Source of the DNA: a virus
Strand: one strand, 5' to 3'
UHGV virus genome: UHGV-0015805
DNA: 64,000 bases
In this document: positions 16,996-59,682 of the stretch, in pieces
Layout of the letters: each line of letters opens with the position of its first letter
Numbering within the stretch: position 1 is the first letter of the stretch
Made by a program: the position numbers and the translations under genes
The notes under the pieces: model-generated
The model's database searches: none
Told to the model about the DNA's origin: nothing
What the model saw: only the letters and a program-made list of their open reading frames with translations

Positions 16996-19884
16996 TTATC
17001 CCCTCTCGTAAGCATATTGAAGTGCAAGATTTTTCAGCCCGGTTACAAACTCTCTTGCATTTGTTACATTGGGCAATTCAAGGTTGTTGACATTCACAGT
17101 GGTGTTGCTGGAATTACCAAACTTAAAGCCCATTAAGCCCTTGAGCGCAGATACAAAATCACTCGGAGATGTGCTACCCCATGCAAACAAATTCTTAGTA
17201 ACGCCGCTTGTAAGTATGCCGTCACCACGATTAAGAATGCGCATTTCAGGACCGTTCTCTCCGACAAGGCTCATGCCGCCAGTTGCGCCAAGCGTGCCGT
17301 TTGCATAGCTCGACCACTTGCCTGTTGCGGCATCATAGGTCGAATTATCTTCAAGCAATTTGGCCAGCTCAACATTTGCATTATGCAACGCCTCGCGCTC
17401 GGCAGAGCTTGTAGATGTTGCCCACGCCGCGCTATTAGCTTGCATCTTGTCAAGAATGGTCTGTCTGACCTCTGCTTTTCTGCGAGCTTCAATGTCCGCC
17501 TTGCTTGCCTCTAAGCCTTTATTGCGATTATATTCGTCAAGCTTTGCCTGCGCCGCAGATATTGCATCCGCATCTTGCACATACTGGAATCGACCGTCTT
17601 TATATACAAGCTTTTTCTGCTCTCTTGCCTTAGCCATTTCATCGAGCAGTTTTTCATATTCAATTTGGTCGGACAGGGCATCATTAACTTCTTCAAGCCG
17701 CGACAGTTCAGAATCATACTTTTCGTTGATTTTATCAACGGCGTCCTCGACCGACTTAGTTGATTCTTCGACCAACTCTTGCATGCGCTTCTTTTCATAC
17801 GCATAAATCTTTTCAGAATATTGCCAATATTCTTCTTGATATTTGGACTTGCCCTTAAAGAATTTATCGACCATTTCAGTAAGCTCAGCGTAATACTGCT
17901 CTTCTGTAATTTCGTCCATTGCAAGTTGATGGTCTTTATATGCAAGCCAATCTGTAAATGCTTTTTTGTAGGTGTCTGTGGCGGAAGATGCGGCGCTCGA
18001 ACTGGAACTATATGTTGCGAGCAGTTGTTCCAGCCACGCAATTTCATCTTCGATATTTTTTATGTTCTGTTCTGCAGTGGCTACTAATGCGTCCTGTCGG
18101 GCTGCTTCAGCTTCGGCTTCTTCAGCTGTTGACAAAAGCTGTGTTTGCCCCATTAAACTCTGTCTTGTCCTGAATCTTAGTGCCTCTGCTTTTGCGGCTT
18201 CGGCGTGCGACAATGCCGTTTTCTGCGCCTGTAATTCCTCTTGTTTTTGCAATAGAACAAATTGCGTTAACTCCTTGCTTCCGCGCAACGCCGCCTTGCC
18301 TGCCGATGTCAACGCGCCCGCTTCGTCATAAAGTAGGTCATTAAGCCCAGGCAACGCTTCGTCTAATGCTTCTTGCGTTTCAGATTGCAATCCGCCATAA
18401 GTATTATAGTCCTGAACTGCCTTATTTAATGCATTTTGTGCTTTTGCGAGATTGTCGACATTATCTCGCTGGGCTTTTGTTATTCCTGCATTTTTGCCTG
18501 CTTGGGTGTTAAGGTTTGCAACAGTTTCTCCGAGCGATTGAGCCGCAACATTGGCTCTTTCTAATTTTCCTTCCGCGTTTTCAATCGCCTCGTCATACTG
18601 CCTTATCTCTTCAATAGTAGCGCTAACTTCTTTTGACATGAAGCTCGGGAATATCCCATATCGAAGAACATTCTCATAAAAGCGAATCAAATCGTCCGTG
18701 TCCATTAAAGAAACATCAACATCAAGGTTTTCGCCAAGCCCCGTTATATCAAATCCGAGCGCGTCTCTGTATCGTTTTAGCCTTTCTTGGAGCTCTTGCA
18801 TCTCAGCGCGTAGTTTATCGCCTGCAGATTCGCGAGATGCTTTTGACTCTATTATTTGCCCATAATAAGCCGTTTGCTTTTCTTGCAACGCCGCTTGAAG
18901 CGCCTCTTGCTTCATCGCTTCGATGCGTTTATAAATTGCACCAGTATCTTCTTTGATTTTACCAGTATGTTCGCCAATGCTGAGATTCAAGTCGGGGTAA
19001 ATTTTATTAAGTTGGTCTACGGCGCTTTTATACTTATACGCCTCACTCGTAGACATATTCTCAACCTTGTTAAGGTCTTCAATTACCCCAACCAAATATT
19101 TTGCTTGTTCGGCATTCGCCTTAGCAATATTTGTGGCATCTGTATAAGTGGCGTTAATTGTTTCTATGGACTTATTTATCTTGTTGATTGTGCCGTACTG
19201 CGCATCATAAGCATCTTTAACAAGCCCTATCATAACCGTTAGCGCCGCCATTGCAATGCCAACGACAGGCACAGACGCCTGCAATGCTTTTACGCCAGTT
19301 GTCGCGCCAGCCAAAACAGATGTAAATGCTTTTATCGATTTTATTGCGACTGGAATGACTTGCGCAATAATTCCGCCGAGCCCAGTAAAAACGCCACTCA
19401 GCAAAACAAATTGTGTTAAAGTTCTGCCTGCTTCGGTGTTCAATACTTTTAACGCGCCATTAGCCAAATTAAGCAAAGACTTAACCAATTCGCTATCAAT
19501 GGTTTTGTTTGCAAAATCTTCCCATGTTGCTTTTAATGCAGTTGTTTTTGCTTCAAGCGAATCAAGGACTTTTGCATTTTCTGCTGCGGCCGAACCCGAA
19601 GAATTGTATGCAAGCTCTGTTGCTTTTTGAACGCCCGAAAAGTTAGAAAGCAATGCAGCAAGATTCTGCGATTGCCTTGCTCCTGCCGCCTGTTGCAAGA
19701 AATAAGATTGCTCGTTCTTGCTAAGTGAATCCCACTTGGGGGCAAGGTCGGACATAACATCGTACAGCGACCTTAACTGCCCTGCCTCGTCTTTGACCGC
19801 AATTCCGTGCTTTGTATACCATGCAAGCAGGTTTTTACCTGTGCTTGATGATTCGTCTACAATTTGGTTAAAGCGACTCTGCAC
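16996..19884 (-). CDS. tail tape measure protein, exon 3 (C-terminal bulk; true 5' end at a 3' splice site near 19885-19950)
   Basis: 962-aa ORF, coiled-coil rich, with a TM-like stretch and a C-terminal peptidase-like region. The frame stays open upstream to an in-frame TAG about 19.93 kb. Confidence 0.65.
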   Translation of the reverse strand: MQSRFNQIVDESSSTGKNLLAWYTKHGIAVKDEAGQLRSLYDVMSDLAPKWDSLSKNEQSYFLQQAAGARQSQNLAALLSNFSGVQKATELAYNSSGSAAAENAKVLDSLEAKTTALKATWEDFANKTIDSELVKSLLNLANGALKVLNTEAGRTLTQFVLLSGVFTGLGGIIAQVIPVAIKSIKAFTSVLAGATTGVKALQASVPVVGIAMAALTVMIGLVKDAYDAQYGTINKINKSIETINATYTDATNIAKANAEQAKYLVGVIEDLNKVENMSTSEAYKYKSAVDQLNKIYPDLNLSIGEHTGKIKEDTGAIYKRIEAMKQEALQAALQEKQTAYYGQIIESKASRESAGDKLRAEMQELQERLKRYRDALGFDITGLGENLDVDVSLMDTDDLIRFYENVLRYGIFPSFMSKEVSATIEEIRQYDEAIENAEGKLERANVAAQSLGETVANLNTQAGKNAGITKAQRDNVDNLAKAQNALNKAVQDYNTYGGLQSETQEALDEALPGLNDLLYDEAGALTSAGKAALRGSKELTQFVLLQKQEELQAQKTALSHAEAAKAEALRFRTRQSLMGQTQLLSTAEEAEAEAARQDALVATAEQNIKNIEDEIAWLEQLLATYSSSSSAASSATDTYKKAFTDWLAYKDHQLAMDEITEEQYYAELTEMVDKFFKGKSKYQEEYWQYSEKIYAYEKKRMQELVEESTKSVEDAVDKINEKYDSELSRLEEVNDALSDQIEYEKLLDEMAKAREQKKLVYKDGRFQYVQDADAISAAQAKLDEYNRNKGLEASKADIEARRKAEVRQTILDKMQANSAAWATSTSSAEREALHNANVELAKLLEDNSTYDAATGKWSSYANGTLGATGGMSLVGENGPEMRILNRGDGILTSGVTKNLFAWGSTSPSDFVSALKGLMGFKFGNSSNTTVNVNNLELPNVTNAREFVTGLKNLALQYAYERG

Positions 19885-21377
19885 TGTAACAAGTGAGCGT
19901 GAAGCAGATGCCGCAGAACGAGTAATTTCGGTAATGCCAGTTAATACATAATTTATTTGCCAGAGGACGCCAACCCTCTAAGCGATTCTTGAAAAAATAT
20001 TTTATAAGAATTGTCCTTATCAAATAAATAATAAGGTATTCTTATCAAAGGAATGTTGTTTTCTTTGCAATAAGCATCTTTTATCTTATCATGCCTTTTA
20101 GTGCTTTCAAAAGTTTTTTGAGCGCGCTCAAATGATATGCGATTAAAACAACACGGTTTATAGTGACCTTGTCCGTCTATTTCCACAAGAATGCCACCAT
20201 CTACGATGTAGAAATCAAACGGTAACGGCAGTATATCCCTGCATTGATTTAATGAATATTGCCGCACATATTTAATATTAAGTTCTTGTAGAAGCTTTTC
20301 AAACATGTCCTCAAACCGCGACATGCTCTTAGCGCAAACAGAACACCTCGTTTTCCCATTTTGAAACGCCGCTATTGATGTATCAAATCGGTTGCCACAT
20401 TCGCAAATAAACGAAAGGGATGTCAATCTTCCACCTTGATACTCTTTGTCGTTGCAAAATCCAATACACTCTACGTTTGCGCCATGTGTACTTGCCCACC
20501 AATTCACATTGTAAATATAGTTCTTTCTATTTATCCGAACATCAAAACGAGACATTCCTTTGCCAGAATTTATTGCAGCTGCAGAAATAAATCCTCTATA
20601 TCCTTCGGCGTCCTCGACCTCTACCCTTTGAGCATACTTTAAATCTCTCGTATCTTCATCAGATATTATCTTATAGCCGTGTGCGGATATCATCTCTCCG
20701 TATATTCTTTTTTGTCTTTTTGACGCCCGAACTTTTGTTGCGCATGACACGCAAACGAAACGATTTCTACAAGATATCTCGTATACTTTTTTACGAAATA
20801 CATTTCCACAACCGCAACGAAGTTCAATTATGGCGCACCCGTTTCGACCAGTTGACCACGAGACAAACTCAGTGGTCGGCGCACATTTTGACAAAAGAAC
20901 ACGCATATTATGCTCGATGTTTGCGTAATTATATTTACCCCATATTGTTGGCGACTTACCAGCCTTTAAGTTGGAATAAGACGCATAACACCATATTCCG
21001 TCCTTTCTTTCGCAAAGCACATATTCGTTTGCATTGACATAATCACCAATTATTTTAAGTCCATGAGAGTTAAACAATTTTATAACTTCAGAATATTCTA
21101 ATTTTTTCAAGAATCCTCCCTCTTTCAATGGAGATTAGACCATATCTTTTTTACCTATGTTTCCCCGCGCTTGCGGGTATGCCTACTGAATTAGTAGGGC
21201 TTACTGGTCGTTGAACAGTTATCAATTACCTATTGATAACTTGCTGCGGATTATCCAATCTCTATATTTGTTACTATACAGCAGTCATTACTTGCTCCAC
21301 CGCATTATTACTAATACGGTTTAGTATATAGAGCTCTAAGGAACTTCCCGTCAATTTATAGGTTTTTAATTGACCTA
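19885..21377 (-). mobile_element. group I intron (TMP intron 2) carrying a HEG in its 3' part
   Basis: On the minus-strand RNA: P-like AAUUGACGGGAAG (plus 21344-21356), Q AAUCCGCAGC (21243-21252), R GUUCAACGACCAG (21199-21211), S AAGAUAUGGUCU (21137-21148). P7 is GACCA/UGGUC, co-varied relative to GACUA/UAGUC in the other introns. Confidence 0.55.
19953..21128 (-). CDS. intron-encoded PD-(D/E)xK (DUF559/Vsr-like) homing endonuclease with Cys-rich repeats
   Basis: C-terminus ILPLPFDFYIVDGGILVEIDGQGHY...KRHDKIKDAYCKENNIPLIRIPY. Repeated CxCGN / CxxC motifs. UUG start. Confidence 0.55.
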   Translation of the reverse strand: MKEGGFLKKLEYSEVIKLFNSHGLKIIGDYVNANEYVLCERKDGIWCYASYSNLKAGKSPTIWGKYNYANIEHNMRVLLSKCAPTTEFVSWSTGRNGCAIIELRCGCGNVFRKKVYEISCRNRFVCVSCATKVRASKRQKRIYGEMISAHGYKIISDEDTRDLKYAQRVEVEDAEGYRGFISAAAINSGKGMSRFDVRINRKNYIYNVNWWASTHGANVECIGFCNDKEYQGGRLTSLSFICECGNRFDTSIAAFQNGKTRCSVCAKSMSRFEDMFEKLLQELNIKYVRQYSLNQCRDILPLPFDFYIVDGGILVEIDGQGHYKPCCFNRISFERAQKTFESTKRHDKIKDAYCKENNIPLIRIPYYLFDKDNSYKIFFQESLRGLASSGK

Positions 21378-21695
21378 TTAACCTAAGCCAATGCTCTCTT
21401 CCATCGTATTTCCGCCAACAGACATTGCGGCAGACATATTTCCGAGGTTTCGAGCTAAATCTGCTGAAGAAACCGCCATATGGTTGCTGACATTATTGAC
21501 GCTATCAATGATATGAGAAGATTCATCAGCAGCAATATTAAATGCCTTCATCTGGGCAATGATAAACTCAGATGCTTCACCCGCCGAAAGTTGCTCATCG
21601 GCGATATTTTGGTACATAGCGGCAACTTTTGCTAATTCCGCAGCATCGGTTTCATTGAACCCGGCTTTCGCAAATTCGGTTGCGCTTTCCACCAT
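21378..21695 (-). CDS. tail tape measure protein, exon 2 (approximate boundaries)
   Basis: ...AELAKVAAMYQNIADEQLSAGEASEFIIAQMKAF... is TP901-type TMP N-terminal region-like. Flanked by intron core elements on both sides. Confidence 0.5.
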   Translation of the reverse strand: MVESATEFAKAGFNETDAAELAKVAAMYQNIADEQLSAGEASEFIIAQMKAFNIAADESSHIIDSVNNVSNHMAVSSADLARNLGNMSAAMSVGGNTMEESIGLG

Positions 21696-22252
21696 TTGGG
21701 ACTTTTATTCAATCTTTCTTGGAGTAATCAATAAATCCCCAATCGTTATGCTCTTTTTCTTCTCTTCTGTACCGCTCGGACACCCGCCTATCTTCTTCTT
21801 CCCATTTTCTGTATTGTTCGGGATTATTCTTCTTGGCAGCATCCTTATCAAAAGGAATTCCAAAAACAACATGCCTGAAGAAGCAAGCAACGCCATAGCA
21901 GACACAATAAAGCATCATCAAAGGAACCGCAATTAACAACATAATCAAGCCCACCTTTCTTTGTTGATGCCATTATAACACATAACTTTTAGATTGTCAA
22001 TACCTTTTTCGAAATATTCTGGACTATTTCTTCACCCTATTTAATTTGGAGGGGTCGAACTTATAAAGTCTCTTGACACATCCCTGTTCGGGACTTCGCG
22101 CCCAATCTACCATTGTTTGTCCCGAACAATATACAATATTCGTGACAAATTGCACTTAGGTCTTTCGACCATATGCTATCCCGCTTATTTTTAACAGTTT
22201 CCCACATTCACACTTGGGCTTATTTCATCCCTATGTTGTAGTTAAACAGGCT
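21696..22252 (-). mobile_element. group I intron (TMP intron 1), no HEG
   Basis: P AAUAAGCGGGAUAG (plus 22176-22189), Q AAGUCCCGAAC (22086-22096), R-like GUCAAGAGACUUUAUAAG (22060-22080), S AAGAAAUAGUCC (22021-32). Its 5' block (22208-22241) is near-identical to 40687-40720 of the TerL intron. Confidence 0.45.
21709..21954 (-). CDS. small intron-embedded ORF (single TM, charged C-terminus)
   Basis: 81 aa, MGLIMLLIAVPLMMLYCVCYGVACFF... Occupies the position where the other introns carry a HEG. Confidence 0.25.
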   Translation of the reverse strand: MGLIMLLIAVPLMMLYCVCYGVACFFRHVVFGIPFDKDAAKKNNPEQYRKWEEEDRRVSERYRREEKEHNDWGFIDYSKKD

Positions 22253-22720
22253 TTAGGTTTTACTGGGTTTTGAACAATTCTCTGTGCTGGTTTGCCATCC
22301 CATCACACGGGCTCCCGTCCATAGTTTACCCGTCTTCGCAACTTCTGCTCCCATGTCGGTTAGCTTGCTCACATATTCGTCCATTGATTCGCCGGACAAA
22401 TCTGTGACCTTTGCTAATTCGACCTGCGCGGCATTCATGGTGTAGACTTCAGAGACCATAGACTTAATAATATCTATGCTCTTCTCCATAATCATGTTCG
22501 CCGCTTGATATGTTAATTCAAAATTCTTCGCGCTGGACGAGGCTTCGTTCATGTTCTTCGACAGATTGCTTATTCCGTCAGATGCTTCCTTAGCCCCTTT
22601 TGCTTTGATATTGATATTGACATTTTTTGCCGCGTCATTCAATTTCTTTTGAATTTCGCTTGTACTTGTCTTTATCTCAATACCTACGCCAATATTCCAG
22701 CTCGTGTTTTTATTCGCCAT
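22253..22720 (-). CDS. tail tape measure protein, exon 1 (3' end approximate)
   Basis: N-terminal TMP-like sequence ...AAQVELAKVTDLSGESMDEYVSKLTDMGAEVAKTGK. The terminal residues with the stop fall inside the intron's conserved 5' block. Confidence 0.5.
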   Translation of the reverse strand: MANKNTSWNIGVGIEIKTSTSEIQKKLNDAAKNVNINIKAKGAKEASDGISNLSKNMNEASSSAKNFELTYQAANMIMEKSIDIIKSMVSEVYTMNAAQVELAKVTDLSGESMDEYVSKLTDMGAEVAKTGKLWTGARVMGWQTSTENCSKPSKT

Positions 22721-22734
22721 AATTCACCATCCTT

Positions 22735-23232
22735 TTATTTATGAATTTGGCTCCAACCCAAAAGAATGGCATCGCTTATATCATCATCGTTCTTACTGCT
22801 TGACGGAGACACCCAATTCAAGTCCAGTCCGAACAATTCGTTGGCTTTCTCCACGGACTTCCTTTTAAGAACATCTCGCTTCGTGCCATCTCTTGTGCCG
22901 TCAAAAATTCCTATATCGCTACGCCATTTCTGAGGAAGTACAAATTGAATCGGTACATGATGAGATGCGGCTATCCCAAGAACATATCCTTGAACAGCCC
23001 CAAGAATCATCAACACTTTAACATTTGCCGCCTTCAACGGCACTTCCTCTACGATTAACCTATCGGGTCGATAGGTCTTAATCAATTCAGACAATGGCGC
23101 ACCTTCATGTGTCAGCCTTTCTCGCCAACTATCTCCCTCGGGCTTAATACAGCCATAATGAATGAGCTTATCTTCATTGAAAACCGCATATCCCGTGCAA
23201 GATGTGCTGCAATCCAGTGATAATGTGATCAT
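22735..23232 (-). CDS. RuvC-like Holliday junction resolvase
   Basis: MITLSLDCSTSCTGYAVF (RuvC motif I-like) and DISDAILLGW (C-terminal acidic motif). Confidence 0.55.
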   Translation of the reverse strand: MITLSLDCSTSCTGYAVFNEDKLIHYGCIKPEGDSWRERLTHEGAPLSELIKTYRPDRLIVEEVPLKAANVKVLMILGAVQGYVLGIAASHHVPIQFVLPQKWRSDIGIFDGTRDGTKRDVLKRKSVEKANELFGLDLNWVSPSSSKNDDDISDAILLGWSQIHK

Positions 23233-30855: not shown

Positions 30856-32299
30856 CCCCTTATGCAGTCTTGTTTCCGTGCGAAACAGACCTCTCGTATT
30901 TTCATACGATGTTCAGACTATATCTTCTTCTTATATATCAATTCTTAAATAATGATGCTCAGTATCGACCAAATACTGCACCCCTTGTTTAATTTGTTCT
31001 TTTGTGGGGACATTTCCCTTGCTCAAAAACCTCAAGACTTTTATCCCTTTGCGCATAGAATAAAAGTCTCTGCGTTTGTCTTGTTCTTTTTTGTTTTTGT
31101 GCCAAAAATACCCATCAAATTCAACATCAATTTTAACATCACCAATAACAAGTAGACAATCATAAATCACTTTATCAAACGGATAAGATGGGAAGCAATT
31201 TTCTTCTCCATACATTTCAATCAAAAGAGCCACCATTTCTTTCTCTGCTTTAGAGCTTGGGATGGTCCCATTGTTAATCATTGTCGCCCAGGATTTATGT
31301 CGCACCTCTGGACTCGATTGGGAACTTTCACCGCCATATCTCTCAACGCAAGTTTTCTTGGCTTTTTTAATTACCCCATCTGATTTAGCAGGGTTGTCTA
31401 CTCCATATTTCTCAAGACATGTTTTCTTAATTTTGTTCTGAATTTCTGGCGACTGCGAAACATTATTAACGCCATACTTTTTTATAATGGTATTTTTTGC
31501 CTTTTCTTTGAATTGTTGAACATGAAACGGCGCAACAGCCCCATATCTTTCGCGCATAGTACGACTTGCTTTTTCTTTAACCTCTTTGTTTCCAAGCGAA
31601 CACTCGATCCCATATTTTTTAATGTTTGTCCGTTTTATTTTTTCGGCAAATCTCGGAGACTGAATCGCTGCTACAACGCCATATTTAGTTTTCATAGTTT
31701 CACGCATTTTAATATTGCCACAGTCTTTACAAGCAGATTTATTGGATTCTTTTATGGAGCTATAATAGTTGTCTATAGTCTTTGTGAAAATTTTATGGCA
31801 ATAGTCACATTCTACTTGTATTTTCTCTTTTGAACCATGGGTAACAAGTTCTGCTGGAACCTCTATCCAATCTTTACAACTCGTAAATGTATATCCAATA
31901 GACTCATAATATTTACGATTATTTGGATTCCATTTAATTTTTATGTATTGCCCTGGTACAATCATAATATCACTCAATTCTTGGTCTGTTTTTGATATAT
32001 AAGAGTTACATTTTTCTTCCCGCATTAGCTTCGGGTTTTACTCCCCCTCAAGGGGATAGTCGTTGGGGGTTTCTCATATGCATTTGTCACATTTTATAGT
32101 GCATCAATACACTTAGAGCTTTCCCTGCGAAAGACCCATTTACATTCACTTAGGATTTAACCATATGAATATCCTCTAACTTTTTTCTGTTTTCACAGCC
32201 ATTCAGCTTGCCTTTTCAAGCTACTGTTTAGGCATAGAGGCTTTAGGGATTCAACGCATTTAACGTAAAGTCTTTACATTTTGCAATATAAAGAGGGCT
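30856..32299 (-). mobile_element. group I intron in the capsid gene with HEG in the P8 region
   Basis: R CAACGACUAUCCCC (plus 32052-32065) and S AAGAUAUAGUCUGAAC (30915-30926) bracket the HEG. P9-like hairpins CGUAUgaaaAUACG and GUUUCgcacGGAAAC before exon 2. Confidence 0.5.
30931..32025 (-). CDS. intron-encoded DUF559/Vsr-like (PD-(D/E)xK) homing endonuclease with tandem KYG DNA-binding repeats
   Basis: C-terminus PFDKVIYDCLLVIGDVKIDVEFDGYFWH...RRDFYSMRKGIKVLRF. Five or more repeats of the form K.KYGV.N..QSPE...KIKKT. Confidence 0.55.
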   Translation of the reverse strand: MREEKCNSYISKTDQELSDIMIVPGQYIKIKWNPNNRKYYESIGYTFTSCKDWIEVPAELVTHGSKEKIQVECDYCHKIFTKTIDNYYSSIKESNKSACKDCGNIKMRETMKTKYGVVAAIQSPRFAEKIKRTNIKKYGIECSLGNKEVKEKASRTMRERYGAVAPFHVQQFKEKAKNTIIKKYGVNNVSQSPEIQNKIKKTCLEKYGVDNPAKSDGVIKKAKKTCVERYGGESSQSSPEVRHKSWATMINNGTIPSSKAEKEMVALLIEMYGEENCFPSYPFDKVIYDCLLVIGDVKIDVEFDGYFWHKNKKEQDKRRDFYSMRKGIKVLRFLSKGNVPTKEQIKQGVQYLVDTEHHYLRIDI

Positions 32300-35000: not shown

Positions 35001-35516
35001 TTAGTTGGACTCCTTGAGAATCCAGAAGTCAGGAACATCGTGGTCATAAGCGCCGATTCTTTCATCGCCATAAATGACCATCTTATCATTGAGCAAAATT
35101 ACCTGCTCGACGATTTCATTTACATCCTCCAGCATATCCAGCAAATCGGCATAAACATGGATATCGTTGTTATCAAGCGCAATTTTGCATGCGCCCATAA
35201 ACATTATCTGGAAATCAATGACGCGTCGTTCAACCTCAGCAATAATGTCGCTGGCTCTGTCATAATCCTCAGCGCCACTTGGCGTCTCGCCATAGATGAC
35301 GGCGATATTATAGCGCTCAAGGCATCTCTCTGCGATTTTATCTGCCAGCGCTAACGGCCAATGGGCAATCCCGTGATGGATTAAATTTGCAGACTGATTG
35401 CAAGCAAATTTTACACCTAAGACCGAAACGCACCTATCTGTAACTCTGTTGAGAACAAAGCACTGTTTGATTAACTCCATAAGAGCGGACTGTGTGTTAT
35501 TAGATACAATCGTCAT
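35001..35516 (-). CDS. hypothetical protein (possible nucleotide-hydrolase-like)
   Basis: 171-aa ORF, fold not identified. Confidence 0.35.
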   Translation of the reverse strand: MTIVSNNTQSALMELIKQCFVLNRVTDRCVSVLGVKFACNQSANLIHHGIAHWPLALADKIAERCLERYNIAVIYGETPSGAEDYDRASDIIAEVERRVIDFQIMFMGACKIALDNNDIHVYADLLDMLEDVNEIVEQVILLNDKMVIYGDERIGAYDHDVPDFWILKESN

Positions 35517-36555
35517 TGGAATTATCTCCTAATATATTATTTATTTTTGCCTTAAAAGAACCATCCATAATTTCAACATAGCTCAACGCAAGATATTTAT
35601 AGCCACAAGATTTGGCATATTCCATTTTATAGTTATCACGCCATTGCAAATCTTTTAGCCATTCGCCTTGCGTCTTGTCTCCAAGCCAACACTTTGGAGC
35701 ACATGGCAAATAATGCTGTATGCCATGCACCTCTATAATAATATTGTGCCCTACTATTTCATTATCAAACGGCATTCTACTGCCCGTATTCGGATTTATT
35801 GGTACAATAGCGCAAGCGTACTCATGCAATGTCTGCAACCCAAGACACTTATTGATATAGTGTTTAACGGCAAGCTCTATGCTTGAATCGGTCATCTCGC
35901 CCAGGCAATCAGGGCACATTAAATCATAAACCCTTGAATATAAAGCAAGTGCACTTGTCTTATATTCCTTTCCGCACTTAGGACATATAATATAAACGTC
36001 CCTATGGCTTTTTGCAGTAAGCTCATTCGGAGCGCGGTCGTTTTTGTCACTCCAAATATTAGAAAGTTCTACGTCTGGATATTTAGATATCAACGAATCC
36101 ATTAAGCTACCATTTTCTCTTATTGAATTTAACGACCTTTTGTACGCAACATATTCCTTTATAGATTTGAACCCATGCTTCTTACACTCATTACACGCCG
36201 TTATCTTGCCAGATGTCAAATCATATACAGCCACTTCAATGGTGTTCCCACATTTGCATCTACACTTCCATAAAAATCCATTCTTAGTAACTATATATGT
36301 GTTCTCGATTGCGACTAATGTCCCAAATGTTCTGCCTTGCAAATTGGCCGTTCGTCTTATGGATGAATCTTTATCTCTAATGCACCCACAGCTAAGAGAT
36401 GCTCCGCTTTTAAGGTGTGTGCCCATAACAGATTTAATATTGCCACACGAACATCTACATATCCATCTAATATGCCCAGCAGAGTTCTCTTCGTCCTTAT
36501 GCAATACTTGCCATTCTCCAAATTCCAGCCCAGTCAAATCTTTGAATTTCCCCAT
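35500..36555 (-). CDS. free-standing DUF559/Vsr-like homing endonuclease with zinc-finger-like repeats
   Basis: C-terminus RMPFDNEIVGHNIIIEVHGIQHY...RDNYKMEYAKSCGYKYLALSY. CRCSCGN, CRCKCGN, ICPKCGK and CPDCLG motifs. Own GGAGGU RBS. No intron core elements in the flanks. Confidence 0.5.
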   Translation of the reverse strand: MGKFKDLTGLEFGEWQVLHKDEENSAGHIRWICRCSCGNIKSVMGTHLKSGASLSCGCIRDKDSSIRRTANLQGRTFGTLVAIENTYIVTKNGFLWKCRCKCGNTIEVAVYDLTSGKITACNECKKHGFKSIKEYVAYKRSLNSIRENGSLMDSLISKYPDVELSNIWSDKNDRAPNELTAKSHRDVYIICPKCGKEYKTSALALYSRVYDLMCPDCLGEMTDSSIELAVKHYINKCLGLQTLHEYACAIVPINPNTGSRMPFDNEIVGHNIIIEVHGIQHYLPCAPKCWLGDKTQGEWLKDLQWRDNYKMEYAKSCGYKYLALSYVEIMDGSFKAKINNILGDNSNDDCI

Positions 36556-38513: not shown

Positions 38514-39494
38514 TTAATATACAAGTTGTAAATCGTCAATATCATAATCTTCATCGTCATTGGTCAGGCGTTTATTCCATTCCATTTCGATTTTATCGAT
38601 TACAATATTGACATAAGACATAACAACAACGCGGTCTTTGGTCGCCTTATTGTCTTCTTTAAGATATAGATTGTCTCCCTTTATTTCTGTGTTAAGCTTG
38701 ATTGCTTCCTGAATAAGCAGGTCTGTCTCGCCATAAGGGGCAAGCTTGTCTGCTAATTCTTCTGAGGTCAATTTGAAGTATTCGCCCGAATCTTCAAGCT
38801 CTTGCTGTTTGTCCGCCATAGATACAAGCATCTTTATGTCGTTACATTCAAGATGCTTTCTAAGTGCAAGCCACCAAACACCATTCTTTTGTGCCGAGCC
38901 CTGTGCAGGAATAATGCATGGGACAGCATCTTTATCAACCGTCCGCATACGCAAATCGGCAAGCTTTGATTCTGTTACGAGGTGATAGTTAAAATTCTGA
39001 GCGACTGTCAATCCTCGTGAATCCCACATATAGCCGCGCCTTGGATGCGTCCTTTTTTCGGTCATAAGGTTATATAGTGTTTCGCCGCCCGCTCTAAGGT
39101 CGTTTACAATAAAGTCTGCGTTATAGTCCCAAAACAGCTCTCTAACGCGCCATTGCGCGCCTGTACTGTCTGAGGCGGGCCATTGTTCCATATATTCAAG
39201 ACTACGGATGAACCGACCGTTTTTCCAGACAGCCGACCAGCACTCAATAATTGTATTATCGTTGCCGTATCCCGTCTTAAATGTTGTGTTCGCAAATGCG
39301 TAGTCAACGCCAACAAGCCGTATTTCGTCCGCTTGTTTTTCTCTGAACGGCGGCTTTGTGTTCGCCAATACCTGTGTATCGGTAGGCGGAACATATGCCT
39401 CTGGAATTTCTTGATTGTCCTTAAAATTCTTTAGGCTAAAGAATGCACCTTCGGGACTACCCTGTGTTTCATTTTCCATCTCCATTGAAAACAT
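38514..39494 (-). CDS. terminase large subunit, exon 2 (nuclease domain)
   Basis: LVGVDYAF (first catalytic Asp motif of the terminase RNase-H-like nuclease), further acidic motifs, acidic C-terminal tail. Confidence 0.55.
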   Translation of the reverse strand: MFSMEMENETQGSPEGAFFSLKNFKDNQEIPEAYVPPTDTQVLANTKPPFREKQADEIRLVGVDYAFANTTFKTGYGNDNTIIECWSAVWKNGRFIRSLEYMEQWPASDSTGAQWRVRELFWDYNADFIVNDLRAGGETLYNLMTEKRTHPRRGYMWDSRGLTVAQNFNYHLVTESKLADLRMRTVDKDAVPCIIPAQGSAQKNGVWWLALRKHLECNDIKMLVSMADKQQELEDSGEYFKLTSEELADKLAPYGETDLLIQEAIKLNTEIKGDNLYLKEDNKATKDRVVVMSYVNIVIDKIEMEWNKRLTNDDEDYDIDDLQLVY

Positions 39495-40745
39495 TTTTTT
39501 AAACTATTTTTTTTGAGGTTAATTATATATATTGCCAGTGAAATCCATATGCGATCCGTTGTTGCCCGCGACAACACTTGGAAATTGAGGACGGGTCCTT
39601 GTTCAAGGCACGACCCGCCTCAGCCACGGATTCATAAGTAACTCCCGTTTCGACACACATCAGCTTCTTCCCACCAATGTTAAGATGTGCAATCCGCGAT
39701 TGATCTCGCATCTCCTCTGTCCAAATTCGATTTTTATTATATCTTCTAAGATGCTCTTTTACGCTTTCTGGACATTTGTGCCCTACTCCGTTCCTCTTAC
39801 CTTTCATCCTCTCCGACCTACGACGGCATATTTCTTCCGAAAGCTTCCATGTTTTGCCTTTTACATTTTGGTTGCCCATTATACTTTGGCTTATTTTATT
39901 TCTTGTTTCTTCGGAATGTTTTTTGCCGAACATGTGATTATCTTTCCCGCATTTTATTTGTTCCGGGTGTTCTTTAAAACGTTTTTTAGCTATTTCGCTC
40001 ATTCTCTTCTTGTCTTCTTCTCTGTGACGATATCCTTTTGTGCTTTCTGCTATCGGACATATATTGTATCCGACATCTCTGTCGGCACTATCATAAAAAT
40101 CTATCCAATACTGCTCGCGTTGTGTTAAATTTTCGTGCGATACGCCTCTTTCCAACACTTCAACACTAAAGTTATCAAATCCATACTTTTTAATAGCCAT
40201 GCAGATACGCCTATTTGTATCTTCGCGTAAGTATTGTTTCATACGAGTATAAAAATCCACCGTCTGCCCGACATAAACCTTCCCGTTTATTAGGTTTCGC
40301 CATAAATAAATGCAACTAAAAGAAAATTTCTTTTTATCATTAACCTCAAAAATATTCATGCTATAAAATCCTTCCTGCAATAAAGATTATTATTCAAGAA
40401 CAAATGGGGTAATTTGTTCGTTTGCAGACGAACAAAAACAATTTGCAACTTGCTGTCCCCCATTGTTCTTTTAAGCACAGGTCGCTACTCCTCGTTTCTC
40501 TCGTTTTTTTGAGAGACTGCATGTTTCCATGCAGATAAGACTATATCTTCACTTTGCTTTTATGCAAAGGCATACCACTTCCACAACCAATCGCTTGTTG
40601 TGTACTCCCTTACGGGATAGTCGTTGAACGTTCCTCTATTCAAAGCTTCGCTGCTGATTGCCCAATTTTTATCATTTTCTCGCATATCACACTTAGCCTT
40701 ATTTCATGCTTATGTTGTAGCTGATAAAACTCTAAGGGTGTTCCA
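39495..40745 (-). mobile_element. group I intron in the terminase gene with a GIY-YIG HEG in a 3' extension
   Basis: Q AAUCAGCAGC (plus 40650-40659), R GUUCAACGACUAUCCC (40614-40629), S AAGAUAUAGUCU (40538-40549), P9 GNRA hairpin CUGCAUGgaaaCAUGCAG (40517-40534), P8 CACAACaagcgauugGUUGUG. Confidence 0.55.
39523..40359 (-). CDS. GIY-YIG homing endonuclease (I-TevI/Seg-like) with NUMOD3-type repeats
   Basis: MNIFEVNDKKKFSFSCIYLWRNLINGKVYVGQTVDFYTRMKQYL (GIY...YVG...R motif). GKKHSEETRNKISQS is a NUMOD3-like repeat. RBS AGGAAGGA. Confidence 0.7.
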   Translation of the reverse strand: MNIFEVNDKKKFSFSCIYLWRNLINGKVYVGQTVDFYTRMKQYLREDTNRRICMAIKKYGFDNFSVEVLERGVSHENLTQREQYWIDFYDSADRDVGYNICPIAESTKGYRHREEDKKRMSEIAKKRFKEHPEQIKCGKDNHMFGKKHSEETRNKISQSIMGNQNVKGKTWKLSEEICRRRSERMKGKRNGVGHKCPESVKEHLRRYNKNRIWTEEMRDQSRIAHLNIGGKKLMCVETGVTYESVAEAGRALNKDPSSISKCCRGQQRIAYGFHWQYI

Positions 40746-41594
40746 GCAATTCAATATGTTTAATGCGAACCTTTTCAAATCCGCTTTGGACATTTTCTTC
40801 TTTGCCTTTCGGTAGTCCGCCCATGTTCGGCTTCCTTCTTGAATTGCAGTATAAATGTCCTCTGCCATAGGAATGTACTTCTCGTGCTTTGATGTATAAT
40901 AGCCCTCAACGCATTTTCTGTATTCTCTGATAAACCATTCCCACTCATACCGAGTAGATGAAATATAGCAAGATTTTGCTGCCTTTATCCACCTATCTGT
41001 TTTATACTTAGGGTCAAGTGTAAATGGCGCAGGACGCTCATGCCCCATTGGCTCAAATACTGAGTCAAGAATTGCTTTCTTCAGCAATCGCGTCTCTTCA
41101 TATATCGTAAATGTAGAACGCATACCACGGGCGTTTTCAGAACACACAGCGACCGTTGTCGTTGATTCATTTAATGTGTTCGTTAAGACGAAAACACCCT
41201 CATCAAGCATTTTAACTGTCAAATAGCCCTTCTCATACAAATACTTCAAATATGGCGAATATTTCTTAATGATTTCTTTTATCATCTTATCTCTTACAAG
41301 TCTTGCGGACTGCGGGATAGAAGATGATGTAACAACAATTTCTGAATGCGGATATAAACTCATTGCACAAAATGCAGCAACGCCAACAATAAAAGACTTC
41401 GCCGTTGAACGAGACGAAAAATCCCAATATTCGTCGGCAACGCCGATCATGTGCAATTTCAGCTTCTGCACAGGATATAGCTTAATACCAAGGACCTCTT
41501 CAGCAAATAAGTCCCAATTCCTGCGATAATAAGTTATCCACTTTTTGACATTTTCGGACTTGCGGAATTGTTCGTTTTCTCTTGCGGTCGGCAT
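40710..41594 (-). CDS. terminase large subunit, exon 1 (ATPase domain; last ~15-20 codons are intron read-through)
   Basis: LYPVQKLKLHMI and a P-loop-like SSRSTAKSF. Walker B-like TFTIYEE. AAGGAG RBS. Start overlaps the TerS-like stop. Confidence 0.55.
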   Translation of the reverse strand: MPTARENEQFRKSENVKKWITYYRRNWDLFAEEVLGIKLYPVQKLKLHMIGVADEYWDFSSRSTAKSFIVGVAAFCAMSLYPHSEIVVTSSSIPQSARLVRDKMIKEIIKKYSPYLKYLYEKGYLTVKMLDEGVFVLTNTLNESTTTVAVCSENARGMRSTFTIYEETRLLKKAILDSVFEPMGHERPAPFTLDPKYKTDRWIKAAKSCYISSTRYEWEWFIREYRKCVEGYYTSKHEKYIPMAEDIYTAIQEGSRTWADYRKAKKKMSKADLKRFALNILNCWNTLRVLSATT

Positions 41595-44169: not shown

Positions 44170-46737
44170 TTATTCATCTGCCCTGTCGTGTCGTCTTGCT
44201 ATGTCCCACTTGTTTTTGCACTCGACACAACACACAATTTGCTTGTCTTTGTTGTTGCCCTTTGCTTTGAATCGCCGCCCGCAAATCGGACAAATCTGCC
44301 CAAGGTCTTTTGTATTATTTTTCAAATTTCTTACAATCACATCGCCAAAGCATGCCCACAACATTTTTTTATGACTGTTCGGACGAACAGTGTATAAGTA
44401 TGCAACAAGCGAATTTACAACGAAATCTAAATCCCACCTACACTCATTGAGTATCTGTGTGCGAATTTTTCTGTAAATATACAAATCCTCGTCCGCAGAT
44501 ACATTCTCGGGCACTTCAATTGTTCCAACCCGCATCTGCCAATAATCGTAGGATTTAATTGCTTGGCAATTATCACTTATCATAAATCCCGCATCGACAT
44601 TCATTAGCATGCGATAATCAAGCTGCCCCAAATTTTTATTATACTTTAATCTGCTGGACACAATTGCCGCCGCAATTCTATTCATTGCAGATTGATTGGG
44701 CGGCTCGACCTGTGATTTCTCTGGGTGCTTCGGGTCATACATTTTATCCTTGGCATAAATGAAAAAGTTAGGCAATTTGGATTTTGTGTGCTTCTTGATT
44801 ATCTTGTCGGCAAATTTCGGTCGTGTCAAGAAGAACAGCGTCTTGCTGCCATCAATTCGGAAGTTTGTTTCCATTGTTAGCCATTTGATAGCAAGGTCGG
44901 CTTCTTCCCTGTCCGCTTCATCGTTATTATGGACAATTGTAATTAAATTGCTTATCGGACCTATATTGCCCGATGTGTAAGCAAGCGACATTCCACGGTA
45001 TATTGTTTCAGGCGTTAATTCTCCACCTTGCGCCTTTTTCATTTCGTAGTAAAGCGGAACAACGCCATTCATTGTTCTTTTTGCAACTTTAAGTAGGTTG
45101 GAATCTTTAATTACTAATAATTTGTCACCGTCGCAATCGAACGCCAGCATTTTACTCACAGTGTCATAGCTACTTGTGTAAATGCATTTTGATTGACCCA
45201 ACCACTTATCTAAATATTCGTTTCGCCTGTTTTTCTTAATTGCCCATTCTTTTCCAAGAGACGGCGACCGCAATAACATCAATTCGCTATCAGCGGGAAA
45301 TTGATTTGTATACACATCCCCATCCGCCAACTCATCATATGGGCTTTTCTCGCCCGTCGTCATCCAACGCAAGAACGGAAGTGGATTCGGCGCAACAAAC
45401 AAATATTTGCCATTTACTCTAACCTTGCCCGCCTTTGCCTGCTTAACCAAGCTTTTCTTTGTTTGCCGAAGAATTTCTTTTGAATACTCGTCTCTGAACA
45501 ATTCAGGATAGATGCTTAACGCTTCCTGTAAGCTACTCTTGTCCTTGTTCCAATCGTCGGCACCAAGCAGCCTCATTGTTGTGCGATAATCAATGCCGAT
45601 TTTCTCAATGTCCTCGTTTGACCGTCTCACAAGCCTGTCGATTTCGGGTTGCGTAATAGAAGACAATTGCTGAAGCATCTGATAATTGATTCGAGAGGAC
45701 TTTATGTTTTCCTCTTCCATGTTGCAGTAATTGACTGTGCATCCGTTCTTCTCAAATTCGCCGCAATATTCGTCCCAACTTGAATAGAACTTTTTCAGCT
45801 TCATTTGGCTCAAGCAGAAAATAACCTTAATATTTTCTTCAACAAGATTGTGTTCTTTGCCCCAAGCATCTTTGACAGTCCATTTATCAGGTGGGCACTC
45901 TTCTCTTAGCCACTGTTGCAAAGGAAACTGTGTGAGCAAGCCCTTAATCCATGGTGCCCGGCACATTCTCGTCATCTCGCCATCAACAATACCCCAACCA
46001 TCTGTACACGGGATGTCAACATCCATTGTTTTGCGATTGACCTCATATGTCTCATAATTGATGTAATCAACAAGCGCTGAAAATTTTGTTTCAAAATCAT
46101 CGACAACTATTGCCCGACGAATATCAAAGCCGTCCCATTGGTCCGTGGCAGAATTTGTGAGAGCTGCATAAGCAGCAAATTTATTTGAATTGATGCCACC
46201 CAGCGCATTTATCTTGTCAACCGTCAGCCCACAAAACAATCGCCCCTGAATTCTCTTATAAGAGGATTCTTTTATTGCAATCATCCGCTTTGTGCGAATC
46301 TGCCCTGCCGACGCCGTATAAAATACATATTTCTCACCATTCAATATAAAGCCATTAAAAATTATGCTCTTCAGCACTTGGAAGAAATACACGTTCACCA
46401 TTATCAACTCATCGCTAAGCTGATAATCAGGCATATTCAATGCACGAGTCAATTCAGAATCGAATAGATTGATAACAAATTTGTCTTTCAGACAATTTGG
46501 GTCAACCGTCCTGTGAATGTCCTGCTCCAAAGACCTGTCTAAAAACTCGGTCAATTTTGCCTTGTACTTCTTTATAACGCGGTTTACACACGCTTTTCGC
46601 CATTTCTGCGTGTCGGAATTCCACCTTTTTCTTATTTTGTATAGCTTAACGAGCTTTTTATGAACTTCTTTTTCTTCGGGCGTATATAATGCGTCTGTGC
46701 CGATTGAATAGATGTAATGAAATTTTTCAAGAGGCAC
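44170..46737 (-). CDS. large DxDGD-motif protein with C-terminal zinc ribbon (candidate YonO-like single-subunit RNA polymerase, or primase-like)
   Basis: 855 aa. AFDCDGDKLLVIKD lies in the middle third. C-terminus CPICGRRFKAKGNNKDKQIVCCVECKNKW. Heads the late block. Confidence 0.45.
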   Translation of the reverse strand: MPLEKFHYIYSIGTDALYTPEEKEVHKKLVKLYKIRKRWNSDTQKWRKACVNRVIKKYKAKLTEFLDRSLEQDIHRTVDPNCLKDKFVINLFDSELTRALNMPDYQLSDELIMVNVYFFQVLKSIIFNGFILNGEKYVFYTASAGQIRTKRMIAIKESSYKRIQGRLFCGLTVDKINALGGINSNKFAAYAALTNSATDQWDGFDIRRAIVVDDFETKFSALVDYINYETYEVNRKTMDVDIPCTDGWGIVDGEMTRMCRAPWIKGLLTQFPLQQWLREECPPDKWTVKDAWGKEHNLVEENIKVIFCLSQMKLKKFYSSWDEYCGEFEKNGCTVNYCNMEEENIKSSRINYQMLQQLSSITQPEIDRLVRRSNEDIEKIGIDYRTTMRLLGADDWNKDKSSLQEALSIYPELFRDEYSKEILRQTKKSLVKQAKAGKVRVNGKYLFVAPNPLPFLRWMTTGEKSPYDELADGDVYTNQFPADSELMLLRSPSLGKEWAIKKNRRNEYLDKWLGQSKCIYTSSYDTVSKMLAFDCDGDKLLVIKDSNLLKVAKRTMNGVVPLYYEMKKAQGGELTPETIYRGMSLAYTSGNIGPISNLITIVHNNDEADREEADLAIKWLTMETNFRIDGSKTLFFLTRPKFADKIIKKHTKSKLPNFFIYAKDKMYDPKHPEKSQVEPPNQSAMNRIAAAIVSSRLKYNKNLGQLDYRMLMNVDAGFMISDNCQAIKSYDYWQMRVGTIEVPENVSADEDLYIYRKIRTQILNECRWDLDFVVNSLVAYLYTVRPNSHKKMLWACFGDVIVRNLKNNTKDLGQICPICGRRFKAKGNNKDKQIVCCVECKNKWDIARRHDRADE

Positions 46738-47007: not shown

Positions 47008-47036
47008 CATTTTAACGAATGGTTAGGAGAAATAAA

Positions 47037-48179
47037 ATGTTTGGTAAATTAAAAACAGAAAAGGAAATACTTGAGCGCCAAGTCGCTTCGCTTGAATCAA
47101 CGAAAGCAAAACTAAACGCCGAAACCAACGAACTCAACGAACGCCTGAAACTTCTGCGTGATTCAATCGAAACACAAGAAGTTCTGTCAGACTTTGGAAT
47201 TAAGACTATCATACCCAATAATTTATCTTGCTCTGAACTTGAAAGCAAGAAAGCAACCGTCCTAATGCAGATACAAGAACTTGCAGGCAGCGATTATTCC
47301 ACAAGAAAGCTACTTCCTGCAGACGGACTGTGGAGAGTCGACGAGTGTTATACAATCGAAAGCTCAAGAGCAAAAGGCAACGATTTACAAAAAGCTGTTG
47401 CGACCGGATGCCTGTATGCATTTAACGCTTATGTGGAGCAGAAAGAAAAGACTTGCTCTGTCAGTTCTCTTGCGCTTGCGATAAAACATGCAACCGACCG
47501 CTTTAATACTCTACAACGCAAAACAAAAATGGTAGGCGTTTCATTAAACTCAAGATATGCAAGCCTGCGTATTGAACTTATGCGCCTTAATGTCCTTATC
47601 AAAGAACAGGCAAAAGCAGAACGGATTAAACTCAGAGAAGAAAAGCGCCTATTAAAAGAACAGGAACAACTGCTGCTTGAAATTGAAGCCGAAACAAGAA
47701 AGCTCAAAGAAGAACGCCTATCAATGGAACTTGCATATGGTCGCACGCTCAACGACGAAGAGGCAAGAGTCTTAAAGCAAAACATAACCAACATTGACCG
47801 CAGAATTGCAAGCTTGCAGTACAGAGCAAGAAATAAAAAAGCGGGATTTGTGTATGTTATTTCTTCACCGTCCTTGCCCAGAATTCAGAAAATTGGCGTT
47901 ACAAGGAGATTGTCTCCTTATACGCGCGTGCGAGAGCTCAGCTCGTCCTCACTTCCTGAGCCGTTTGCGCTTAATGCTTATTGCTTCTGTGATGATGCAT
48001 TTGACATTGAATCTAAGATGCATGCACATTTCGACTCTAAGCGCGTATCGCCAAACAGAGAATTCTTCTATATCACTGTTGAAGAGGCAGTTGACGCATT
48101 AAAGAACATATACGGACAAGAAGTCCGATATGGAAATAAAGACCTTGAAGAATTGGAGGAAAGCAATGAAAAAATCTGA
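47037..48179 (+). CDS. DUF4041-like coiled-coil / T5orf172 (GIY-YIG-like) domain protein
   Basis: AGGAGA RBS. N-terminal two thirds coiled coil. C-terminus GFVYVISSP...IQKIGVTRRLSPYTRVRELS...PEPF...HAHF...REFF matches the T5orf172 pattern. Confidence 0.55.
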   Translation: MFGKLKTEKEILERQVASLESTKAKLNAETNELNERLKLLRDSIETQEVLSDFGIKTIIPNNLSCSELESKKATVLMQIQELAGSDYSTRKLLPADGLWRVDECYTIESSRAKGNDLQKAVATGCLYAFNAYVEQKEKTCSVSSLALAIKHATDRFNTLQRKTKMVGVSLNSRYASLRIELMRLNVLIKEQAKAERIKLREEKRLLKEQEQLLLEIEAETRKLKEERLSMELAYGRTLNDEEARVLKQNITNIDRRIASLQYRARNKKAGFVYVISSPSLPRIQKIGVTRRLSPYTRVRELSSSSLPEPFALNAYCFCDDAFDIESKMHAHFDSKRVSPNREFFYITVEEAVDALKNIYGQEVRYGNKDLEELEESNEKI

Positions 48180-58872: not shown

Positions 58873-58946
58873 GCTGTAATAGCTCAACGGAAGAGCAATC
58901 GGCTTATAACCGATAGACGATAGTTCGACACTATCTTACAGTACCA
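58873..58946 (+). tRNA. tRNA, anticodon UAU (Ile, AUA-decoding) with encoded CCA
   Basis: Manual fold. Acceptor GCUGUAA/UUACAGU. D arm GCUC-AACGGAA-GAGC. Anticodon arm AUCGG-CUUAUAA-CCGAU. Variable loop AGAC. T arm GAUAG-UUCGACA-CUAUC. U8, A14, G18G19, U33, A37, U54U55C56 and G53-C61 all present. 3' ACCA. Confidence 0.7.
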
Positions 58947-59322: not shown

Positions 59323-59535
59323 ATGGTAGTATTTGCAATGTATCGAAGCACATATTTGTATGGATGCGGATTTTACACAAAGACATTTTACTCGTTGTCC
59401 GAAGCGGCGCGATTTTACGTCATGAACTTTGAGAGAGTTGCAAATATCAAATGTGCTCACAAACAACGCAAAATTCTTTGTGATAAAATTCAATCGCTTA
59501 TGGACAGGCGTAAACATTTTGAAATGAACGCTTAG
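59323..59535 (+). CDS. hypothetical protein
   Basis: Likely start MVVFAMYRST with AAGAGGTG RBS. The track ORF is 59245..59535. Confidence 0.35.
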   Translation: MVVFAMYRSTYLYGCGFYTKTFYSLSEAARFYVMNFERVANIKCAHKQRKILCDKIQSLMDRRKHFEMNA

Positions 59536-59682
59536 CTCAAAGGGAGAGCGCCGATAGAAATTCAGCGACGAGGCTGACGGGAGGATGAAAGTTCGAGTCT
59601 TTCAGTGTTCACTCGGATAGACTATGCGATATTAAGAAGTTTGCAGATAGCGTGATTTGTGAACAGATGCATAGTCCACATT

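Follow-up and report, generated by a model that had tools for sequence, protein, structure and literature searches.

Two predicted group I introns in the tape measure gene of an uncultured SPbeta-like phage

Organization of the tape measure gene

The viral genome UHGV-0015805, a stretch of 64,000 nucleotides (nt) that is referred to here as the window, belongs to an uncultured SPbeta-like siphophage nearest to Enterocloster phages. Between positions 16996 and 22720, three open reading frames (ORFs), at 22253..22720, 21378..21695 and 16996..19884, lie on the minus strand exactly as a preliminary description had listed them, and they are separated by two spacers. The three ORFs very probably belong to one gene for a tape measure protein (TMP), from whose single minus-strand pre-mRNA two group I introns would be excised. 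The predicted splice sites are 22328/22327, 21702/21701, 21386/21385 and 19947/19946, so the ends of the exons differ from the ends of the ORFs (Table 1), and exon 3 begins 62 nt ahead of the earliest start codon in its ORF. The joined exons amount to 3660 nt with no internal stop codon and encode a single TMP of 1219 amino acids (aa) and about 130 kDa. This layout was adopted as the only one that gives the sequence of the homologues with U before each 5′ cut and G before each 3′ cut.

Searched separately, only the middle ORF among the three gives a clear family match, to PF10145 (phage minor tail protein/TMP), and this match is limited to profile positions 19-119 of 201. The predicted spliced product matches PF10145 from position 4 to position 201 in one stretch (76.5 bits; cutoff 33.2) and TIGR01760 (tape_meas_TP901) with 98.1 bits (cutoff 28.8; 5e-28). 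The match runs over both junctions, indicating that a single domain is divided among the three ORFs; the earlier attribution of TMP-like sequence to all three is borne out by the joined product. In an alignment with 25 metagenome homologues both junctions are free of gaps: junction 1 reads VAKTG/SQMVESATEF and junction 2 reads EESIG(L)/LTGITEITRS, at positions where uninterrupted homologues have VA[KR]TG-S[EQ]-MVEAATEF and EE.[LI]G[LM][LMF]TG..EITR, respectively. In tblastn comparisons with cultured Enterocloster and SPbeta phages, single alignment pieces extend over both junctions (aa 23-403), and the uninterrupted cultured counterparts have 34% identity (Enterocloster bolteae phages) and 29% identity (SPbeta YomI). 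Early guesses at junction 2 (G/C, GF and GLGC) left a gap of three residues relative to the homologues and were discarded; the correct junction is GGCU/UAUUAAC.

The predicted ligated RNA of exons 1 and 2 is GAAGACGGGU-UCCCAAAUGG, with GAAGACGGGU/UCCCAAAUGGUG as the read that spans the junction, and that of exons 2 and 3 is GCAUUGGCU-UAUUAACUGG, with GCAUUGGCU/UAUUAACUGGCAUU as the spanning read. Skipping of exon 2 would be a frameshift, since 393 plus 2951 nt is not a multiple of three.

In comparisons with L008, L036 and L043, all close relatives, the ratio of nonsynonymous to synonymous substitution rates (dN/dS) in the predicted frames comes to 0.23 in exon 2 and about 0.1 in the first part of exon 3; for exon 1 it is 0.05 (against L008). 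The exon 3 value takes in 21 codons upstream of any start codon. These codons can be translated only through splicing, and the selection on them therefore speaks for the spliced reading.

Table 1. Predicted features of the tape measure locus (coordinates of the window; IGS, internal guide sequence; RBS, ribosome-binding site; HEG, homing endonuclease gene)
Feature	Position	Strand	Details
TMP exon 1	22720..22328	minus	131 codons, 393 nt; 3′ end ACGGGU, final U is the 5′ splice-site nucleotide
Intron 1	22327..21702	minus	626 nt
Intron 1 IGS	22316..22307	minus	GGGA/GCCCGU
Intron 1 guide, window lineage			P1 ACGGGU/GCCCGU (exon 1/IGS); P10 GGGA/UCCC (IGS/exon 2)
Intron 1 guide, second group			P1 CCGG[U/C]/GCCGG; P10 UCUGA/UCAGA
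Intron 1 guide, third group			P1 CCGGG/CCCGG; P10 UCAGG/UCUGA
Intron 1 P2	22307..22283	minus	
Intron 1 P4	22267..22262	minus	
Intron 1 P5a-c	22250..22180	minus	
Intron 1 R	22079..22067	minus	
Intron 1 P8	22055..22034	minus	
Intron 1 S	22033..22021	minus	
Intron 1 P9	22018..21999	minus	
Intron 1 sigma-70-type promoter	22000..21972	minus	TTGACA, 17 nt, TATAAT, TG extension; directly after P9
Intron 1 cargo gene	21942..21709	minus	77 aa; RBS GAAAGGUGG at 21959..21951
Intron 1 terminal G	21702	minus	
TMP exon 2	21701..21386	minus	316 nt; 3′ end AUUGGCU
Intron 2	21385..19947	minus	1439 nt
Intron 2 IGS	21382..21369	minus	GUUAAUA/GGUCAAU
Intron 2 P3	21363..21358 with 21158..21153	minus	ACCUAU/AUAGGU
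Intron 2 P element	21357..21344	minus	quoted string found verbatim
Intron 2 P5a-c	21333..21260	minus	three-way P5a/b/c extension
Intron 2 Q element	21253..21243	minus	quoted string found verbatim
Intron 2 P6a	21239..21219	minus	
Intron 2 R element	21216..21204	minus	quoted string found verbatim
Intron 2 P7			GACCA/UGGUC
Intron 2 P7.1	21198..21182	minus	
Intron 2 P7.2	21177..21164	minus	
Intron 2 S element	21148..21137	minus	quoted string found verbatim
Intron 2 P9	21134..21116	minus	
Intron 2 P9.1 stem	21115..21101 (GAUUCUUGAAAAAAU) with 19998..19984 (AUUUUUUCAAGAAUC)	minus	about 15 bp, predicted by folding
Intron 2 HEG	21110..19953	minus	385 aa, UUG start; RBS GGAGG within the 3′ strand of P9
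Intron 2 P9.2	19979..19962	minus	terminal G eight bases further on
Intron 2 terminal G	19947	minus	site agrees with protein homology
TMP exon 3	19946..16996	minus	2951 nt including stop codon; 5′ end UAUUAAC

Intron 2 and its homing endonuclease

The P, Q, R and S strings that had been quoted for spacer 2 are present letter for letter, and its P7 was read correctly. The Rfam scan that had been proposed as a check places intron 2 above the cutoff and the window copy of intron 1 below it: the match of intron 2 to RF00028 (21116..21433, minus strand) scores 52.1 bits against a gathering score of 50, and its E-value of 2.4e-10 for the whole window is well beyond chance. The ORF-less intron of the relative L008 scores 54.2 bits. 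Judged by its predicted helices, intron 2 is a group I intron of IA2-like layout, in which P7.1 and P7.2 come after P7 and before the 3′ strand of P3 (P3′). P1 (AUUGGCU/AGGUCAAU) joins the 3′ half of its IGS to the last bases of exon 2 and has U·G at the cleavage site; P10, of 7 bp (GUUAAUA/UAUUAAC), joins the 5′ half to the seven bases with which exon 3 begins. P4 contains a bulged A, P5 and P6 are present, and the predicted P9.1 stem closes a loop of 1.1 kb with the HEG ORF.

The preliminary description took the double change in P7, from GACUA/UAGUC to GACCA/UGGUC, as an argument that the structure is functional. The covariation is genuine, but its weight was overstated: GACCA/UGGUC occurs in at least 120 viral contigs and is thus a common natural variant and no peculiarity, and the change from U-A to C-G says little beyond P7 being a helix. 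An apparent uniqueness of the variant (6 of 81 matches) arose from the search pattern used and was dropped. Better sequence evidence than P7 for selection on the fold of intron 2 is the compensatory change in P3 of the relative L043 (87% identical), where ACCUAU/AUAGGU has become ACCUGU/ACAGGU.

In the Rfam alignment of intron 2 all 59 positions of P8 are deleted. Among the matches listed, nearly all introns of the GACCA type keep P8 (in the order P7.1-GUA-P7.2-GAAR-P3′-P8), so its loss in the lineage of intron 2 stands out. Models that rescued P8 by taking GUAGG as P3′ and CCCGC/GCGGG as P8 were dropped, since the double change in L043 fits ACCURU/AYAGGU only. Another GACCA-type intron, in L241 (3601..3663, plus strand), has just 63 nt from R to S, seemingly too short for P8, and may possibly be a second P8-less lineage.

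In L008, L025, L036 and L088 an intron 2 is found at the identical site with a hairpin of 13 nt (GGCUAAUAAAGCC) in place of the ORF. A homing cycle is expected to give both an HEG-plus and an HEG-minus state, and the forms with and without the ORF correspond to these. DNA identity to L008, L025 and L036 is 91-93% upstream of the HEG insertion (22800..21122) and about 80% just downstream in exon 3 (19984..19237); a recombination boundary appears from these identities to be located at intron 2/HEG.

The HEG starts at the UUG codon at 21110, not at 21128; its homologue P0063 begins with MKKL. The HEG product matches PHROG families whose annotation is homing nuclease or intron-encoded nuclease, with E-values down to 7e-43, and its own family comprises at least 584 proteins, which have in common an N-terminal part with two CxxC zinc-ribbon-like modules. 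Among 41 homologues, D305, E316, D318, H322 and D347 are invariant and H346 is nearly so, giving the motif E316-x-D318-G-x-x-H322. In an AlphaFold model (mean predicted local distance difference test score, pLDDT, of 88) the C-terminal domain adopts a Vsr-like nuclease fold, and Foldseek concurs. On the basis of this model, the HEG product can be classed as a Vsr-like (EDxHD-type) homing endonuclease whose DNA-binding half is of another kind. The preliminary description called it DUF559-like, which fold comparison finds correct at the level of the fold, although the Pfam DUF559 (PF04480) hidden Markov model does not match it. At the predicted target region, an intron-less allele reads GAAGAGAGCATTGGCTTATTAACTGGCATTACC.

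I-Bth0305I is the prototype of EDxHD (Vsr-like) homing endonucleases (PMC3239194; PDB 3R3P). The identity of the intron 2 endonuclease to I-Bth0305I is just 18%, with no match at the sequence level, and the two differ in other respects: two CxxC zinc-ribbon-like modules take the N-terminal place of the NUMOD repeats of I-Bth0305I, and the ORF lies in P9.1 of an intron in a TMP gene, whereas the ORF of I-Bth0305I lies in P5 and its target is recA.

Intron 1 ribozyme

For spacer 1 the preliminary description reported P, Q, R and S elements and no HEG. Elements of this kind are present in divergent form (AAAACCCAGUAAAACC, AGAUUGGGCGCGAAG, GUGUCAAGAGACU and GAAGAAAUAGUCC) and there is no homing endonuclease in intron 1, but a promoter and an ORF of 77 aa were overlooked. 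A conserved motif of 25 nt in spacer 1 recovered about 35 loci with intron 1 from viral, metagenome and genome collections, and every true match sits at the identical TMP codon. The best homologue, L033, aligns with the Rfam model over its full length with the same helices (27.8 bits, E=0.0027). The IGS exists in three versions that match three versions of the exon 1 and exon 2 sequences (Table 1), which is to say that it covaries with both exons.

The 5′ part of the predicted fold consists of P1, P2, P3 (pseudoknotted with P7), an A-rich joining segment J3/4, P4 and P5. The large P5 extension has a P5a that encloses two hairpins; it includes a hairpin capped by GAAA and an optional hairpin, which is present in the window and missing from its closest relatives. 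The 3′ part consists of P6, P6a, J6/7 (GUCAA), P7, P8, J8/7 (GAAGAA) and P9. Covariation was assessed in 22 distinct sequences from about five lineages. Of the cells in the proposed helices, 90.3% are paired, compared with 34-48% when the partners are slid, and compensatory changes affect 29 of 69 pairs, compared with 2-13 with slid partners; the covariation score was reached by none of 500 shuffles. The covariation extends over 14 helices in group I topology, with P7 pairs seen as G-C, C-G and A-U, and RNAalifold independently recovers P1, P2, P6a, P7 and P8. These sequence comparisons make intron 1 a divergent member of the group I introns, one that has an extended P5 domain and lacks P7.1 and P7.2.

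Three pairings were tried and rejected. A mini-hairpin UGG/CCA as P2 was replaced by the covarying P2 of 7 bp found by RNAalifold; a pairing of columns 91-93 with 330-332 proposed by RNAalifold was dropped for the covarying P5a CCUUGCC/GGCAAGG; and AAGGGC, upstream of the 3′ strand of P4, was rejected as the 3′ strand of P3, since covariation (GCUC/GAGC, CCCC/GGGG) puts that strand after P7.

In about 16 loci with intron 1 (L001-L005, L010, L014, L022, L027, L029, L030, L035, L038, L041 and L042), the last nucleotide of exon 1 (position -1) is C or G, not U. The IGS changes along with it, so that a Watson-Crick pair takes the place of the near-universal U·G wobble.

Intron 1 cargo

Directly after P9, intron 1 has a predicted sigma-70-type promoter that agrees with the consensus at 12 of 12 positions and is the sole perfect one within 19800..22800. 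The -35 box and the TGn -10 element are kept in all relatives of intron 1 examined. Downstream of an RBS, a small gene follows whose stop codon is 7 nt short of the 3′ splice site. An ORF of 60-110 aa is found here in every member of the intron 1 family examined, and its products have from one to three hydrophobic stretches, followed by a charged tail that ends in DN[DA][YFW]G[IVF][IY][DE]. In four subfamilies dN/dS is 0.09-0.13, which indicates purifying selection. No family match was found in Pfam, PHROG or PADLOC; a profile search retrieved unnamed proteins of the same family and sizes only. Two distant homologues that were checked are also encoded between TMP exon 1 and the remainder of the gene. 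Judged by its conservation, the cargo of intron 1 is a real, conserved and always intron-borne membrane-protein gene, not a nuclease gene.

The late genes of SPbeta are transcribed by the YonO RNA polymerase. A host-type promoter within a late gene of a phage that encodes a YonO-like polymerase suggests that the cargo may be expressed independently of the late programme. It is conceivable, if rather doubtful, that intron 1 has become domesticated and now serves permanently as the site, within an essential late gene, of an accessory gene with transcription of its own; the cargo protein, expressed from that gene's host-type promoter (in a lysogen, for instance), might then act on tape-measure-mediated DNA entry in the manner of superinfection exclusion, linked to the matching TMP allele.

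Splicing and alternative explanations

The mechanism inferred from these sequences is as follows. The TMP gene would be transcribed from the minus strand as one pre-mRNA, in which each IGS would pair with the end of the upstream exon (P1, with U·G at the cleavage site) and with the start of the downstream exon (P10). Each intron would leave by two guanosine-dependent transesterifications, ending at its terminal G, and the outcome would be an mRNA for the single TMP of 1219 aa. Intron 2 is probably mobile, or was so until recently, through the HEG in its P9.1 loop, whose product presumably cuts intron-less TMP alleles near GGCU/UAUUAAC. Intron 1 carries its promoter, RBS and small membrane-protein gene in a 3′ position equivalent to that of the HEG of intron 2, and the cargo could be transcribed separately from the late operon if the predicted promoter is active.

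Several observations weigh against this interpretation. The window copy of intron 1 scores 15.6 bits in Rfam (E about 1), below the gathering threshold. Its P4 has only 61% of cells paired, with non-standard pairs in many relatives; P3 in the lineage of the window is in a shifted register (GAAUU/AAGUUC), unlike that of most relatives; and the long-range helix that closes the ORF is 6 bp in this lineage and no better than shuffles, whereas in relatives it is strong, covarying and 8-19 bp long. Intron 2 is without the core helix P8, its P3′ (AUAGGU) leading directly into J8/7, so that its autonomous activity is not guaranteed. Sequence searches with the HEG product in Pfam, NCBIfam and PDB gave nothing significant.

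Some of these points would suit one or both introns being splicing-impaired relics, or being dependent on a protein cofactor, as in a decaying prophage or one that receives help in trans. The missing P8, the short closing helix of intron 1 in the window relative to its relatives, and the C or G at position -1 in many intron 1 relatives are all compatible with this explanation. It is nevertheless improbable, because several diverged relatives with the P8-less intron have exons that are unbroken and subject to purifying selection, because the compensatory change in P3 lies inside the P8-less lineage, and because the contigs are viral genomes of 57-92 kb that come from many samples. Hardly credible is a spacer 1 that is not an intron but a "moron" cassette that permanently splits TMP, with the N-terminal 131-155 aa and the rest as separate proteins: the Rfam score of the window copy, the complete promoter-RBS-ORF unit and an in-frame ATG 6 nt downstream of the start of exon 2 would fit such a cassette, but they are opposed by an IGS that occurs in three versions, each covarying with the exons on either side, strong covariation over 14 helices in group I topology, the full-length Rfam alignment of L033, a terminal G and U·G pair exactly at the junction given by protein homology, and the lack of an RBS ahead of the exon 2 ATG.

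Comparison with known systems

Two introns in one tail gene had been considered unusual in the preliminary description. This view does not hold, for the TMP gene, as read here, is a further instance of a phenomenon described in 2008 in Bacillus cereus prophages. In prophages of the B. cereus group, TMP genes have group I introns (TMP-IVS1, TMP-IVS2 and TMP-IVS3) at three sites, and the genes of strains E33L and KBAB4 have two each (PMC2504315, Tourasse and Kolsto 2008). The ribozymes include types IA1 and IA2, occur in HEG-containing and HEG-less forms, and have an IGS adapted to each site (PMC2504315). The window resembles these prophages in having a TMP gene with two group I introns, one with and one without an HEG; it differs from them in belonging to an SPbeta-like clade, in the non-HEG gene of intron 1 and in the absence of P8 from intron 2.

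Three group I introns interrupt orf142 of Staphylococcus phage Twort, which, like the TMP gene of the window, is a phage tail structural gene split by group I introns. The product of orf142 is a tail tube protein, and exon skipping is documented for this gene (PMC11878797). Gene and host are different here, and skipping of exon 2 would destroy the reading frame.

The cargo of intron 1 may be compared with that of IStrons, in which a group I intron is joined to an insertion sequence (IS) transposase (PMC4227781). Intron 1 is like an IStron in that a ribozyme with non-HEG cargo renders the insertion harmless to the host gene, and unlike it in that the IStron cargo is a mobility gene, whereas the intron 1 cargo is a membrane protein of 60-110 aa with no mobility signature, at a single site. 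In the open-access literature searched, no report was found of a phage group I intron with a promoter-driven membrane-protein gene. What is new in the window is this promoter-equipped non-HEG cargo of intron 1, the newest part, together with the core of intron 2, which is without P8. In a family of about 35 group I introns, a promoter-driven membrane-protein gene under purifying selection is stably present in place of an HEG; if the promoter is active, self-splicing introns would be safe harbours for accessory genes within essential operons. A natural P8-less intron in a gene under purifying selection offers a ready test of whether P8 is dispensable. There are consequences for annotation as well: throughout this clade of gut phages the TMP gene is wrongly annotated as a series of short ORFs, and one of the two TMP introns escapes Rfam.

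In other members of the clade, homologous TMP ORFs also end after NQQAG, YMESLN or RLQEN (P0002, P0009, P0021, P0036 and P0039; L001 6733..8223 and its equivalents in L002-L004), and next to each comes an HEG-like ORF of about 360 aa with a zinc ribbon. These additional break points imply at least four or five TMP intron sites, so that multiple introns appear to be the rule in the clade; scans of L001-L003 at the Rfam gathering threshold detected no intron.

Other features of the window

On the minus strand at 44170..46737, an ORF of 855 aa matches PF05183 (RdRP-like) and corresponds to a single-subunit RNA polymerase of the YonO type. This ORF and the neighbours YomU, YomW, YomX and YomN in relatives identify the phage as SPbeta-like. 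By megablast, no DNA similarity of the region to deposited phages was detected.

A third group I intron (40517..40786, minus strand) is the top Rfam match of the window, with 81.6 bits, and has a P5 extension similar to the one in TMP intron 1. It is followed by an ORF for a GIY-YIG and NUMOD3 endonuclease (39523..40380, minus strand) and lies between ORFs 40710..41594 and 38514..39494, apparent halves of one gene, which have no Pfam match. Further nuclease-like ORFs are found at 30931..32025 (minus strand; DUF7487, the same family as an ORF with weak DUF559 similarity beside the tube gene of L002), at 35500..36555 (minus strand; DUF4379 treble-clef zinc finger) and at 47019..48179 (plus strand; T5orf172). 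By these matches, selfish-nuclease genes are unusually numerous in the window.

L019 (SFEA01000039.1), a contig with the same intron-containing TMP gene, was binned in a metagenome-assembled genome labelled "Bacteroidales"; it is probably a mis-binned phage contig, as the nearest cultured relatives infect Firmicutes. Two tRNA genes are located on the plus strand of the window: tRNA-Ile with anticodon UAU (58873..58946), above the Rfam threshold, and tRNA-Phe with anticodon GAA (59526..59612), below it.

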